From a virus, in IMG/VR virus record IMGVR_UViG_3300037467_001254, positions 1 through 43,320 of that record: a DNA stretch of 43,320 nt; one strand, given 5' to 3'. Positions 4,385 to 43,320 of this stretch are shown piece by piece (position 1 is the stretch's first letter; each line of letters opens with the position of its first letter). Made by a program: the position numbers and the translations under genes. The notes below the pieces were generated by a model. It was given only the letters and a program-made list of their open reading frames with translations, was not told the origin of the DNA and ran no database searches.

Positions 4385-5482
4385 TCATTTCAACACCTTA
4401 TGCGCAGCTTCTTCACCAGTCCACGCATTCTCCACACTTTTTGCCTTTTTCATCTGCCGCAAAGTTGGCAGCAAATCGGCCCGTTTCGATTCTTCCGATG
4501 CGACCACATGCTCGTATCTGGCGGCCGATTTCTGATCCCTCCACCGTCCAGTTCCAACCAGGCCGCGAGTGTCCAGCTTGCCATACCGACGCATCCACGT
4601 TGCCCACGTGTGGCAGTAGATGTGGAAGGTGACGAAATCCACGTCGGGTCCGGCTTTCTTCTTCACCTTTCCCATGAGCGTGTAGAGCCGACCGCACTTT
4701 CTGAACCGGAATACCTTCTGCTTTCCACGGTTCAGCCCGCGCGGATGGTTCGCCAACTCTGCCACCGCGTCAGGCGGCAGGTAGACGCCTCGCGGATCGT
4801 CATTTTTCGTTTTCGGGAAATAGGCGAATGCCTCGTTGATCATCAGCTTGTCGCACGTCAGCGCCAGCGCCTCGTTCAGCCGGCACCCCGTGTAGAGAAG
4901 AAAGGTGAGGAAAATGGCGAATTCCCTGTCAATCTCGCAAGCGGCTTCCCACATTCGGTAAGCTTGTCCTGGCTGCATCCAGTCTACGCGGGATTTCCCA
5001 CGCCATCCCTTCGGCCTCCTGATTTTGAAATCCACGCCAGCGTGCTTAAGGACCGACGATATCGGCGTGTAGACATGACGGTTGCGCGTCATGGGGGACG
5101 CGTTCGGATAAAGCGACACCGCCGTCCTGTCGATTTCCTGCTGGTCGATCTCCGATAACAGCTTGTCTCCCAACAGGGAGATGGGGCCGCCGTTCCATCG
5201 CTTCTTCTCGTCATCCCACGTGCCGAGATACCGGGCGTCACCGCCACTCTCCAGATAAGCGACGGCCGCCTCGACGAAAGTGGGGCCCGCCGGCTTCTCT
5301 GCTGCTACTAGCGCGGCAACGCGACCACGTTCGATATCTCGGCGCTTCGCTGCAAGGATTTGCTTGGCGAGTGCTTCGACAGCAGTTCCCGTGCTCTCGT
5401 CCACGCGGACTCCAAGGTACGTTCCTCGGATCGTCCAGTTGGGCGATTTGCCCTTGCGCGGCGGCTTGAGTTGGATCGACAT
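4385..5482 (-). CDS. int: Tyrosine integrase (365 aa)
   Basis: GGGAGG SD 7 nt upstream. Catalytic positions are R201 (TGCRLNE), H287, W314 and Y323 (ARYEHV) with Cre-like spacing. Cys290 sits where Arg-II is expected. Confidence 0.85.
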   Translation of the reverse strand: MSIQLKPPRKGKSPNWTIRGTYLGVRVDESTGTAVEALAKQILAAKRRDIERGRVAALVAAEKPAGPTFVEAAVAYLESGGDARYLGTWDDEKKRWNGGPISLLGDKLLSEIDQQEIDRTAVSLYPNASPMTRNRHVYTPISSVLKHAGVDFKIRRPKGWRGKSRVDWMQPGQAYRMWEAACEIDREFAIFLTFLLYTGCRLNEALALTCDKLMINEAFAYFPKTKNDDPRGVYLPPDAVAELANHPRGLNRGKQKVFRFRKCGRLYTLMGKVKKKAGPDVDFVTFHIYCHTWATWMRRYGKLDTRGLVGTGRWRDQKSAARYEHVVASEESKRADLLPTLRQMKKAKSVENAWTGEEAAHKVLK

Positions 5483-13465: not shown

Positions 13466-14005
13466 TTACGCCGCAGCCTTGGCACGGGCGTCGGCTTCCG
13501 CCGTCTGAACGCGCTCAAGATTGGCAAGGTAGTAGATGGCAGCCTCGATCTCGTCGGGGGATAGGTCCGATTGATGGCGGCTGTCGCGGATGTCGCCGCG
13601 AACCTCTACAGCAAAGATGATGGAGCCATGACGGGGGCCGTAGTGGTATTCGCAGTCACAACGCTGGCCATACCAGTGGTCATAGCTCTTGGTGCCGAAG
13701 TACACCCGCCACAAATCGCCATAATGCTCGCGTACCGGGACGCCGGTCGCAAGCTGCTTGATGGCGTCGGCGATGACGGAAGCACGGTCATCGCCACCCT
13801 TCGCATAGGTGCCGCGTACCAAGACGATGGTCTTGGCGAGGGCAACCTTATCAAGGTCGATGCCTTGAGCGCTCAGGTCCAGGACTTCCGCGCGCTTTCG
13901 AATTTCATTGCGGAGGCGGTTCTCTTCAGCCTTCGCAGTTTCGATATGCGTGGCGAGTGCACCTTTCAGGTCGTGCATCTCGCAGGCTGCTGTCGTCAGG
14001 TTCAT
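13466..14005 (-). CDS. Hypothetical protein (179 aa), first gene of leftward early operon
   Basis: Purine-rich SD GGGAGAGAGGAGAGGAGAGG upstream. Confidence 0.7.
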   Translation of the reverse strand: MNLTTAACEMHDLKGALATHIETAKAEENRLRNEIRKRAEVLDLSAQGIDLDKVALAKTIVLVRGTYAKGGDDRASVIADAIKQLATGVPVREHYGDLWRVYFGTKSYDHWYGQRCDCEYHYGPRHGSIIFAVEVRGDIRDSRHQSDLSPDEIEAAIYYLANLERVQTAEADARAKAAA

Positions 14006-14157
14006 TCGATCCTCTCCTCTCCTCTCCCGCCTGCCGAGGCTCTGCGGGCTGTTCTGTCGAGGGGCTGGCGGGCCGTATTGCCCGCCTGATTGCCCGGTCC
14101 GGTTACATGGCCTCCTCCTGGGTTCGGGTAGGTGGCTTGATTGCCGTTCGACAAATC

Positions 14158-14187
14158 AATATACGCACAACACGTATGAACAAGCAA
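14158..14187 (-). promoter_or_regulatory. Leftward early promoter (PL-like) with operator
   Basis: The minus strand reads TTGCTT-18 nt-TATATT. The 17-bp operator ATACGCACAACACGTAT (14161..14177) lies in the spacer/-10 and matches the TACG-N8-CGTA pattern of the PR operator. Confidence 0.55.
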
Positions 14188-14235
14188 GGCCTTTACGTGA
14201 AAAAAGTAAGCGCGTTGACATTTTGCGTATGAAGG

Positions 14236-14268
14236 AGCAAAAAGAAAGCCCCGGCGGTGAACCGGGGC
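14236..14268 (-). terminator. Intrinsic terminator of the cI transcription unit
   Basis: The minus strand reads GCCCCGG-TTCACCG-CCGGGGC followed by TTTCTTTTTGC. Confidence 0.7.
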
Positions 14269-14275
14269 CTGATGC

Positions 14276-14580
14276 GGTTGGTTGGTTGAAGACAGTGGCA
14301 ACCGCGACGTTGCGAAACGTTATAGTATTACCACTGGGCGCGGACGAAGTACAGCCCTATCCCGAAAGATCGAAGGGGTGTTCGCCGTGACGGAGCGAGC
14401 CGTTACGACAAAGTGCGATCAACGAGCGGCACTCGCGATGACTGCTCGGCCCAAAGCGACGGCTGGCTCCGGCAGGCAAGATCGCAAGGGCTAGGGGCTA
14501 ACCTCGGATGCCGAAAGGCCCGGGGCTTAGTCTCCCTATGCCCTTTGCTCAGGCTTCACCAACAGGCAAACCTTCAAAGA
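14276..14580. ncRNA. ORF-free, highly structured ~300-nt segment between the cI stop and the terminator (candidate ncRNA or structured 3' UTR)
   Basis: No plausible ORF on the minus strand. A 65-nt hairpin at 14484..14548 has about 27 bp and a GAAA loop. Helix 14293..14298/14331..14336 encloses a 6-bp hairpin with a GCGA loop (14306..14321). There is an 8-bp hairpin at 14386..14407. Confidence 0.4.
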
Positions 14581-15285
14581 TCAAGCTGCTCCACCCATTA
14601 CAACGAAGTGCACCGAGTGCACATTCTCATGAGGGAACGTCAATCTCTTGGGTGGGTTGTACTGCTCAAGCACAAGTTCCTCGGCGTTGTGCCGAACGAA
14701 CCTCTTTATGTAAGCTAGGCGAGTATCGCTCTCGTCCATGATGATTTGGGCGACCACGAAGTCCCCCTTTGTCACGCGCCTGGTTGGGTCTACAAAAACG
14801 ACCTCGCCGTCAAAATAGCGAGGCTCCATCGACTCGCCGGACACCTGCACTGCGTACGCTCCGGAAACTGGCGATAGCGAAGGTGGAGCCATCACCTCAT
14901 ACAGTATACTACCGTTCAACACGAATTCCCCGTCTATGCCGCCTACAGCGCTACCATACACAGGGATCATGTTTCCGCTAGTAACAATTGGTGAGCCGAC
15001 TATCGCGTTCGGGGCTGGTGGAGCAAAATTGAATTCTGGACCTGCCAGTTCCCAAATTTCTGGGCGCGAAATCGGCGGGCTTCCTTTCCCTAGCAGAGCC
15101 TTCTCGATCTTCGTCACGAAATCCCTCTTAAGGTACCCTGCCTTCAGTTTGTCGGGGTCAAAATAACGCTGAATGCTGGATGCGTCCGCGTAGCCCATGG
15201 CACGCGCCATGTCCGCCATGGTCAGCCCAGATCGTTCACGCAAACTGCGCATGCGACCGGCGATTGATTCCGGTGAATTATCCAT
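14581..15285 (-). CDS. cI: CI-type repressor: N-terminal XRE HTH plus C-terminal S24 (LexA-like) peptidase
   Basis: HTH region RMRSLRERSGLTMADMARAMGY. Peptidase motifs GESMEP and AYIKRF. Start placed at MDNSPES because the longer ORF (to 15402) would cover the operators and the cro start. No SD is present, so the mRNA is near-leaderless. Confidence 0.85.
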   Translation of the reverse strand: MDNSPESIAGRMRSLRERSGLTMADMARAMGYADASSIQRYFDPDKLKAGYLKRDFVTKIEKALLGKGSPPISRPEIWELAGPEFNFAPPAPNAIVGSPIVTSGNMIPVYGSAVGGIDGEFVLNGSILYEVMAPPSLSPVSGAYAVQVSGESMEPRYFDGEVVFVDPTRRVTKGDFVVAQIIMDESDTRLAYIKRFVRHNAEELVLEQYNPPKRLTFPHENVHSVHFVVMGGAA

Positions 15286-15323
15286 GTGGCGCACAAGACC
15301 ATCTGTCACGTACGTTTTCCACG

Positions 15324-15353
15324 TTGACAAGCAATACGCATAATGCGTATAAC
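15324..15353 (+). promoter_or_regulatory. Rightward early promoter (PR-like) with palindromic operator
   Basis: TTGACA (15324..15329)-17 nt-GTATAA. A perfect 17-bp palindrome ATACGCATAATGCGTAT sits at 15334..15350. A degenerate site is at 15310..15326. A divergent TTGCTTGT -35-like element (minus strand, 15327..15334) is shared with PL. Confidence 0.65.
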
Positions 15354-15383
15354 GAGAGAAAGAGAGATTACCGGAAGACCCAA

Positions 15384-15623
15384 ATGCTTGTTTCTCCAGC
15401 ACACTATGTCATCGGAAAGCTTGGCGGACTTACCAAGACCGCTACCGCGCTCGGGATACCGGTAACGACAGTCCAGGGATGGAAGGATCGCAACCGCATC
15501 CCACAAGACCACTGGCAGAAATTGATCTCAGCGGCGAAGGGTGAAGGCTTCACTATCGTGCTGGCGGACTTCCTGCGCGACCATGAACTCGACGCCCCCT
15601 CCCGACAGGAGGAAGGCGTATGA
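15384..15623 (+). CDS. cro: Cro-like HTH regulator (YdaS-like, 79 aa)
   Basis: GKLGGLTKTATALGIPVTTVQGWKDRNRIP. First gene downstream of PR and divergent from cI. Confidence 0.75.
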   Translation: MLVSPAHYVIGKLGGLTKTATALGIPVTTVQGWKDRNRIPQDHWQKLISAAKGEGFTIVLADFLRDHELDAPSRQEEGV

Positions 15624-43016: not shown

Positions 43017-43320
43017 ATGCAAGGTTTCGGTCTAGGCCTTGGCCTGTCACAGAGAGGGCGGGGCGGGCGATACAGCCCCTCCATCCTCTTTGCCAACGGA
43101 GAGCAAGGCGGCTGGTACGATCCAAGCGACCTAACAACGCTGTTTCAGGATGCGGCAGGGACTACGCCTGTAACGGCGGATGGACAGCCAGTCGGCCTTG
43201 CGCTCGACAAGTCGAAGTGGGGCGGCAAGACGCTGGCGCAGGTGATCGCGGGGCAGCCGGAGCTTATTTCCAATGGCGAGCTAACGGCGAACACAAACGG
43301 TTGGACTGCTGTTAACTCCC
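43017..43320 (+). CDS. N-terminal part of the junction-spanning tail fibre-like gene (continues at 128..765 after collapsing the overlap)
   Basis: The ATG at 43017 (MQGFGLGLGLSQRG...) has no stop before the window end. In frame with 1..765. Confidence 0.75.
   Translation, partial: MQGFGLGLGLSQRGRGGRYSPSILFANGEQGGWYDPSDLTTLFQDAAGTTPVTADGQPVGLALDKSKWGGKTLAQVIAGQPELISNGELTANTNGWTAVNS
43194..43320 (+). repeat. Terminal overlap copy 2 (identical to 1..127)
   Basis: Direct comparison of both ends. Confidence 0.95.

Follow-up and report, generated by a model that had tools for sequence, protein, structure and literature searches.

A predicted structured RNA gene facing the repressor gene in lambda-like phages of Hyphomicrobiales

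The window analysed here is a stretch of 43,320 nucleotides from a virus (IMG/VR record IMGVR_UViG_3300037467_001254, positions 1 to 43,320), and this report concerns the segment of about 300 nucleotides which lies between the stop codon of the repressor gene and the early-left promoter and operator region. An earlier note made from the letters of the window had proposed a non-coding structured RNA in this slot beside the repressor, and the comparison of relatives bears this out, as the segment has no conserved reading frame and its helices covary. The explanation which we favour, and which the sequence comparisons make rather probable, is that the segment is an RNA gene of ∼325 nucleotides whose product would be transcribed from the plus strand, would act in trans in a manner that depends on its fold, and would be coupled to the repressor by convergent transcription. 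The predicted RNA belongs to a family that is absent from Rfam 15 and that has at least 35 distinct members which, judged by their surroundings, belong to temperate phages and prophages of Hyphomicrobiales.

Conserved fold of the element

Members of the family were recovered by pattern scans on the conserved blocks followed by nhmmer; a first scan with an exact pattern had yielded chance matches to coding sequence only. The element is found in 47 loci on viral and metagenome contigs, 35 of them distinct and full-length. When the window segment is folded as a single sequence, a z-score of about -2.7 is obtained on either strand, and 1 of 100 and 0 of 100 shuffled sequences fold as well. This signal is modest and proves little alone, whereas across the relatives it is decisive. 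RNAalifold and single-sequence minimum free energy predictions were consistent only for one long hairpin (P2, see below) and for the terminator hairpin. The structure model was constructed by manual segment-by-segment comparison and by column-pair statistics; it was tested on an alignment of 22 sequences, and the strand counts given further below were made on an alignment of 35 sequences.

In the 22-sequence alignment the 69 pairs of the ten helices are formed in 88.1% of the cells, compared to 38–43% when the 3′ partners are slid by one to three columns. Compensatory changes, that is changes on both sides of a pair, are seen in 31 of the 69 pairs, and the covariation score of 0.234 (0.109 in shuffles) was reached by none of 500 shuffles. 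The 13 members added in the larger alignment bring further compensatory changes within P2 (L044, L049, L057, and L060), and about 55 columns are invariant across all 35 sequences. Covariation among relatives, which had been named in the earlier note as a check, is therefore present and decisive across the family, and the comparison points to a fold of about ten covarying helices with two pseudoknots.

All helices of the body are given here in plus sense. The 5′ part of the body is engaged in pseudoknot 2 (14274..14305), identified by comparison, in which GCGGUU (14274–14279) pairs with AACCGC (14300–14305) and thereby crosses helix H-J. It is formed as a helix of 5–9 bp in about 19 of the 22 sequences and by at least ten different sequences, among them GGGCCG/CGGCCC, UGACCG/CGGUCA, and CGAGAGC/GCUCUCG. 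Helix H-J itself (14293..14336) consists of CAGUGG (14293–14298) and CCACUG (14331–14336) and encloses hairpin I (14306–14321) with its GCGA loop. In three of the six pairs of H-J at least two Watson–Crick types occur; read in repressor sense the helix would contain 23 A·C cells, which are G·U in plus sense, and not a single G·U cell. Domain G (14340..14385) has an outer stem GCGGAC/GUUCGC (14340–45 with 14380–85), which is 93% paired with four of six pairs compensatory, and an inner stem CCCU/GGGG (14355–58 with 14375–78). Its apical loop presents the strand GAUCG (14368–72), which pairs with CGAUC in a junction strand (14416..14420) to form pseudoknot 1. This is paired in 99.1% of the cells with compensatory changes in four of five pairs, and in the 35 sequences 173 of 175 cells are Watson–Crick; the variants include GAUCG/CGAUC, GUCCG/CGGAC, and GCUCA/UGAGC.

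Hairpin F (14386..14407) has a variable stem of 3–6 bp, for which many different stems are found, and a conserved hexaloop. In hairpin D (14423..14448), where CGAGC (14423–27) pairs with GCUCG (14444–48), at least two Watson–Crick types are seen in six of seven pairs. Module C (14456..14485) is closed by GCGA (14456–59) and UCGC (14482–85) and contains an invariant GGCUCC and the first copy of a variable hexamer, CAGGCA in the window (14473–14478). The long irregular hairpin P2 (14484..14548) with a GAAA loop (14513–16) is the most conserved part of the family; its core is invariant in most members, and in repressor sense it would have 44 A·C against 5 G·U cells. Module A (14555..14572) carries the second CAGGCA (14563–14568) followed by AACC (14569–72), where the conserved body ends. 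This AACC may pair with GGUU (14284..14287) to form a closing helix P1, a tentative helix proposed from inspection of the alignment which is formed in about 14 of the 22 sequences with no compensatory change. P2 as a 65-nucleotide hairpin, H-J together with the enclosed hairpin I, and hairpin F had already been drawn in the earlier note, and all of them recur as helices of the family.

Could the segment nevertheless be a protein gene, the decayed remnant of one, or a mobile repeat? Short frames do exist. As claimed before, the minus strand of the segment has no credible open reading frame (ORF), the longest being a 40-codon frame with a TTG start (14357..14479); on the plus strand the longest frame has 70 codons, again with TTG (14282..14494). 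No conserved ORF of the rexAB or bstA cargo type is found in the slot. A coding reading was considered since BLASTP groups the frames translated from the conserved DNA; it was given up, as this grouping only mirrors the conservation of the DNA. The frame is not kept between the conserved blocks, indels are not multiples of three, and the spacing between four conserved anchors falls into all three classes modulo 3 among 22 members. The gene remnant considered in the earlier note is thus rejected, given the lack of a conserved frame and the strongly covarying helices. A dispersed repeat of the MITE, REP, or RIME type would be present in many copies per genome, whereas one copy of the element is found per genome or locus, and BLAST searches against 72,556 plasmids (PLSDB, rhizobial megaplasmids included) and 50,697 phage records gave chance matches only. 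That the segment is a decayed gene, contains a small ORF in either direction, or is a MITE- or REP-type repeat spread over the genome is hardly credible in our view.

The RNA also does not resemble a described one. The Rfam search that had been proposed for the segment gave no match at the gathering threshold when Rfam 15 was run on the whole window and both strands. A relaxed search with the region and ten more loci yielded sub-threshold matches only (16–31 bits versus thresholds of 35–70), and these weak matches correspond largely to the terminator hairpin, alone or together with the adjoining helix. ARAGORN reported no tRNA or tmRNA, and a literature search found no description of the RNA. 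Resemblances that were considered, namely to helix 18 of 16S rRNA, the sarcin–ricin loop, the tmRNA sequence GGACUAAGC, and the RNase P motif GGCUCC..CAUAGGG, were dropped as short chance matches that lack support from a model.

Strand, promoter, and ends of the predicted transcript

The earlier note had left the functional strand open, pointing out that several G-U pairs and the GNRA loops are plus-sense and that the terminator is minus-sense. These observations are correct and proved to be the key clue. In the 35 sequences, 132 cells of the body helices are G·U in plus sense and A·C in repressor sense, compared to 15 cells that are G·U in repressor sense, and the overall pairing amounts to 95.1% in plus sense versus 88.9% in repressor sense. 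The terminator hairpin shows the reverse bias with 21 G·U cells in repressor sense and 2 in plus sense. A strand-neutral test of five hairpins counted 41 interior wobble pairs for the plus strand versus 6, and 14 GNRA or UNCG tetraloops versus 3. In addition, the plus strand has the more stable fold in 33 of the 35 members. Because of the base-pair statistics and the loop types, we take the plus strand of the window, which is antisense to the 3′ untranslated region (UTR) of the repressor gene, to be the strand that is folded and selected. A reading of the repressor-sense strand as the RNA, made from the terminator and a few U·G pairs, was overturned by the systematic counting.

A promoter in the corresponding orientation can be proposed. 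In the window it would comprise a −35 hexamer TTGACA (14215–14220), a 17-nucleotide spacer containing the repressor half-operator TGCGTAT, and a −10-like hexamer CAAAAA (14238–14243), all on the plus strand (14215..14243). When the best match to a TTGACA-N16–18-TATAAT-like sequence was searched in each locus, 25 of 32 loci proved to have a plus-strand motif of the form TTGAC(A/G/T)-17-TA(G/C/T)AAA, which ends 4–7 nucleotides before the hairpin. The −35 hexamers are TTGACG (8), TTGACA (5), and TTGACT (2) and the −10 hexamers TAGAAA, TACAAA, TATAAA, or CAAAAA. The mean score of the motif is 8.0 on the plus strand and 6.7 on the other strand, and the sequence around it is otherwise unrelated between the loci. 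Most loci have an operator-like palindrome 6–12 nucleotides upstream of the −35 hexamer, that is between the putative RNA promoter and the divergent early-left promoter. A strict E. coli promoter rule makes no call at the window site 14215..14243. The motif resembles what we take to be the housekeeping consensus of Caulobacter, TTGACGS...GCTANAWC, which is a lead and not a test.

The hairpin at 14246..14270 appears to be used on both strands. For minus-strand transcription it forms the intrinsic terminator of the repressor gene, a 10-bp stem (14270..14246) followed by TCTTTTTGCT, and it is indeed the single strong leftward terminator, as had been stated earlier. On the plus strand it would be the 5′-terminal stem–loop of the RNA. 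We infer that the RNA starts near 14248, at this hairpin, which is the reverse complement of the repressor terminator. From there the structured body extends to about 14572 and ends nine bases from the stop codon of the repressor gene; a plus-strand transcript may run on into this gene in antisense orientation.

The functional RNA might instead be made from the repressor-sense strand. It would then be a structured 3′ UTR or an RNA processed from it, expressed in the lysogen from the maintenance promoter and sharing the repressor terminator, similar to the 3′-UTR-derived small RNA envisaged in the earlier note. This strand is necessarily transcribed whenever the repressor gene is. Moreover, a repressor gene on the same strand precedes the element in every case, and in some members the element begins right at the stop codon of this gene. 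All copies end with a strong terminator, which has its T-run and its G·U pairs in repressor sense. However, in this sense the body would have to accommodate the 132 A·C mismatches counted above with only 15 G·U cells, the tetraloops favour the other strand by 14 to 3, and the promoter-like motif at a fixed distance is also on the other strand. In three loci (L023, L028, and L022) another terminator or other genes even separate the repressor from the element. As wobble pairs and tetraloops indicate the opposite strand, though the terminator is on that of the mRNA, we regard an RNA derived from the repressor transcript as unlikely.

Within the 3′ end of the repressor gene there is a perfect palindrome GTGCAC-NNN-GTGCAC (14608–14622) which resembles a terminator for minus-strand transcription. 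As ATTCTCAT comes after it on the plus strand, the palindrome could also weakly stop an antisense RNA, in this phage group only.

Twin repeats and possible function

P2 is flanked by two direct copies of a 6–7-nucleotide repeat, ∼90 bp apart, which are identical within a phage and different between phages. Seven variants are found (CGGUCA, CAGUCA, CGUUCA, UGAUCA, CAGGCA, CGAGCA, and CGGUAA in plus sense), and both copies are identical in 31 of the 35 members. The covariation of the two copies is direct and not complementary. The type of the hexamer does not depend on the type of the repressor and its operator, as the window and L015 share operators and differ in the hexamer. Neither a complement of the repeats elsewhere in the genome of the window nor extra copies in the loci were found. 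We know of no mechanism that accounts for such twin repeats; the pattern suggests that a single variable partner, which could be a protein or a nucleic acid acting in trans, recognises both copies as equivalent sites.

The same pattern would be expected if the repeats were sites in the DNA that are read by one co-evolving, phage-specific protein, for example iterons or parts of an origin or recombination site. The parallel change through seven variants with identity in 31 of 35 members fits this idea, and neither strand offers an RNA partner for the repeats. On the other hand, compensatory changes, the G·U asymmetry, and pseudoknots are signatures of RNA, the repeats occur nowhere else in the loci, and an integrase and a DnaA-like replication protein are encoded elsewhere in the phage. 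As the repeats could equally be sites for a protein on the RNA, we consider a DNA element very unlikely.

A pairing of the twin modules in trans with the leader of the first early-left gene (13466..14005) was also considered. This leader contains on the minus strand (14024–14041) the sequence AGCCUCGGCAGGCGGG just 5′ of the ribosome-binding site GGAGAGGAGAGGAGAGGA, and it could form 13 contiguous pairs with module C in repressor sense (-26.5 kcal/mol). The other loci have nothing comparable, and L015 keeps the leader target of the window type though its modules differ. The match is thus judged to be coincidental and probably due to chance. Elsewhere in the 43-kb genome no antisense target longer than 12 nucleotides was found.

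We suggest the following course of events. The RNA would be transcribed from its own promoter (14215–14243), which is arranged back-to-back with the early-left promoter and beside an operator, would start at the hairpin that serves on the other strand as repressor terminator, and would run toward the repressor gene. Its conserved three-dimensional fold might bind a conserved factor of the host or the phage or a small ligand, or it might be catalytic, and the twin single-stranded repeats of 6–7 nucleotides could confer specificity for a second, variable partner. Polymerases coming from the repressor gene would terminate on top of the RNA start site. As the two transcription units overlap convergently and one terminates on the start of the other, they should antagonise each other: synthesis of the RNA and of the repressor mRNA would interfere by convergent transcription and by full complementarity over ∼330 nucleotides, and this mutual interference would tie the RNA to the lysis–lysogeny switch. 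We favour an activity in trans that depends on the fold since pairing alone does not explain the invariant nucleotides.

A simpler proposal would be that the locus is purely a cis-antisense or convergent-transcription device which lowers repressor expression and in which the structure merely stabilises the transcript; a promoter next to the left operator would fire toward the repressor gene. This proposal agrees with the convergent geometry and with an overlap that spans the repressor 3′ UTR completely, and the prophage of Kaistia granuli described below, which is devoid of the element, seems to keep a motif TTGCCG-17-CATAAA directed into the repressor gene, a single case which could be chance. 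Yet pairing imposes no constraint on the sequence, and ∼55 positions are invariant, two pseudoknots covary across phages with unrelated repressors, and the element is more conserved than its flanks. An antisense RNA, as proposed in the earlier note, would fit the geometry, the strand statistics, and the promoter-like motif at its conserved position, but would leave the invariant nucleotides and the pseudoknots unexplained; as a complete account we regard such a device as improbable.

In its size, its invariant junctions, and its two pseudoknots the element reaches a complexity known from riboswitches, and on either strand it is directly upstream of a regulatory target. It could therefore be a cis-acting riboswitch or attenuator leader that gates antisense transcription or the read-through of the repressor strand into the early-left operon. 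Such a leader should have an expression platform, and none is seen: there is no plus-strand terminator after the body, no plus-sense ORF downstream, and inspection of the alignments revealed no conserved alternative (anti-terminator) pairing, while in repressor sense every member has a strong terminator. We consider a leader of this kind quite unlikely.

Several points weigh against the trans-acting plus-strand RNA that we favour. The energy advantage of the plus strand is partly an effect of composition, and for the window the z-scores of both strands are equal. The −10-like hexamer is without the final T that E. coli-type promoters require and is poor in the window (CAAAAA), and its richness in A is partly forced by the T-run of the terminator on the other strand. 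An intrinsic terminator is missing on the plus strand after the body, and what is conserved may represent just the 5′ domain of an antisense transcript of greater length. The complement of the twin hexamers was found neither inside the RNA on either strand nor in the flanks, and in the available flanks the RNA is not accompanied by any recurrent protein family. Finally, the base of P2, the closing helix of module C, and P1 rest on an imperfect alignment.

More tentatively, and with considerable doubt, we propose that the RNA represents a new class of large, doubly pseudoknotted phage RNA within the lysis–lysogeny switch. Such an RNA would face the repressor and be transcribed from a promoter of its own next to the left operator, its fold would bind a host factor or a small molecule or would be catalytic, and the twin re-programmable 7-nucleotide elements would set its specificity; it might in this way couple a cellular signal to repressor expression, or provide lysogens with an RNA-based immunity or anti-defence. 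The regulatory or defensive RNA of the lysogen considered in the earlier note is a conceivable reading as well; the RNA could be made in lysogens, in lytic growth, or in both. Complex pseudoknotted RNAs with dozens of invariant nucleotides are rare, and most of those that have been solved are ribozymes, riboswitches, or ribonucleoprotein cores. The twin heptamers, in turn, look like programmable specificity elements. If the RNA does have a role in the lysis–lysogeny decision or in superinfection immunity, it would add a layer of RNA structure to a circuit which has been treated as protein-based since lambda. The site, in the immunity region of lambdoid-type phages whose hosts are soil and marine Hyphomicrobiales, is well defined and genetically tractable, and with 35 sequences the family is large enough for structure probing, cryo-electron microscopy, and genetics.

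By their defining features neither the large orphan RNAs nor the rexAB/bstA slot, the phage antisense RNAs, or the convergent-promoter switches include this RNA. GOLLD, ROOL, and HEARO (Rfam) are likewise long RNAs with many covarying helices and invariant junctions, are borne by phages or prophages, and were of unknown function when discovered. They comprise several hundred nucleotides, and the present RNA is smaller (∼325 nucleotides), shows no sequence or structure match to Rfam 15, and unlike them is always located at the same place within the immunity region, where it faces the repressor gene in convergent orientation; so far it is found in Hyphomicrobiales phages only. Lambda OOP, Sar of P22, C4 of P1 and P7, and the CI RNA of P4 are RNAs of 70–200 nucleotides with one or two hairpins which act by base pairing. 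As predicted for the present RNA, they are encoded by small genes within the lysis–lysogeny control region and overlap a regulatory gene or transcript in antisense. In contrast, the present RNA has about ten predicted helices, two pseudoknots, and ∼55 invariant positions, and outside its own antisense no pairing target was found in the window genome and the flanks. Lambda rexAB and bstA of BTP1 encode proteins on the repressor strand which are expressed together with the repressor. They occupy the same slot between repressor and left operator, where the cargo varies among relatives; here, however, there is no ORF, and the functional strand appears to be the opposite one.

In coliphage 186 (pR/pL) and in pCF10 (prgQ/prgX) face-to-face transcription units interfere by collision of polymerases and by pairing of sense and antisense transcripts. 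Compared to these systems, the overlap in the present locus, whose convergent arrangement is predicted, is a conserved folded RNA and not an arbitrary sequence. Retrons, DRT and other reverse transcriptase-associated non-coding RNAs, and the guide RNAs of IscB, TnpB, and IS110 have an adjacent partner enzyme, and none is present in the flanks, the genes next to the element being those for repressors and early recombination functions. A functional precedent for a non-coding RNA of the prophage state is provided by mycobacteriophages with a parABS system, in which a non-coding RNA that is several hundred nucleotides long and is expressed in lysogens from a promoter of its own is needed for prophage replication (Wetzel et al. 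2020, PMC7157519). These phages are devoid of an integrase and replicate as plasmids (PMC7157519), whereas the phage of the window has a tyrosine integrase and a DnaA-like protein, and no sequence relation between the two RNAs was seen.

The element in its phages

The element has the same surroundings throughout the family. On one side a repressor-type gene, or the gene or genes following it, is present in essentially every locus with sufficient flank. The repressors are either of the S24 type (220–255 amino acids) or short helix-turn-helix (HTH) proteins of 112–150 amino acids and are mutually unrelated; sometimes one or two extra genes follow. On the other side there is an operator-rich promoter region, with operator-like palindromes, which drives an early operon with ERF/RecT, YqaJ, and NinB. 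The element is better conserved than either flank, and the adjoining proteins indicate hosts among the Hyphomicrobiales, for example Nitratireductor and Mesorhizobium.

The slot downstream of the repressor is variable, as supposed in the earlier note: relatives of the window repressor hold protein genes there, nothing, or the RNA. Repressors from metagenome assemblies with 82–100% identity do have the segment downstream, and the alignment of these close relatives shows conserved blocks with variable stretches between them and indels that are not multiples of three. The closest relative in the genome collection is encoded by a prophage of Kaistia granuli (L001, 79% identity), in which the RNA segment is absent and the terminator follows 35 nucleotides after the repressor stop codon. 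With further relatives, protein genes occupy the slot. In the Kaistia prophage an opposite-strand motif TTGCCG-17-CATAAA is found directly before the terminator hairpin (L001 4740–4830), where the RNA body is absent. An antisense promoter facing the repressor may thus predate the RNA, though this is a single case which could be chance.

Additional cargo is seen in two phages of the Nitratireductor type. In L023 (7309–8204) the interval between repressor and RNA contains a putative protein which looks HEPN-like by its sequence and a partner ORF, and in L028 (4307–5941) it contains a secreted protein of 203 amino acids and a stretch of low GC content. In both cases a separate terminator follows the extra cargo and precedes the RNA gene. 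In L024 (116–1372) a long low-complexity tandem repeat (translated as ...IASCGCRAL...) is located beside the RNA gene and gives a spurious BLASTP link to L011.

The window carries an exact direct repeat of 127 nucleotides at its ends (1–127 and 43194–43320) and is a complete phage genome of 43,193 bp which is circularly permuted or terminally redundant. Its gene layout is lambda-like. The leftward early operon encodes ERF, the YqaJ exonuclease, NinB, and HNH genes, with a tyrosine integrase at its far end (4385–5482). The early-left promoter region with its operator ATACGCACAACACGTAT (14162–14178) is assigned to 14162..14195 on the minus strand, which would be divergent from the RNA promoter. 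The repressor gene, with HTH and S24 peptidase domains (Pfam), is located on the minus strand (14581..15312) convergent with the putative RNA gene; its stop at 14581 is as reported before. A cro-like gene (15384–15623) is divergent from the repressor gene and is followed by genes for a GapR-like protein, a DNA methylase, the DnaA-like protein, and a Q-like antiterminator.

The operator ATACGCACAACACGTAT resembles the palindrome ATACGCATAATGCGTAT of the repressor/cro intergenic region (15286–15385), where this perfect 17-bp palindrome is accompanied by the related sequence ACGTACGTTTTCCACGT. The repressor probably starts with the GTG at 15312, as relatives begin with MTNGLVR..., so that little or no leader would be left, and no obvious ribosome-binding site is seen. 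A comparable near-leaderless start is known from lambda cI when transcribed from the maintenance promoter.

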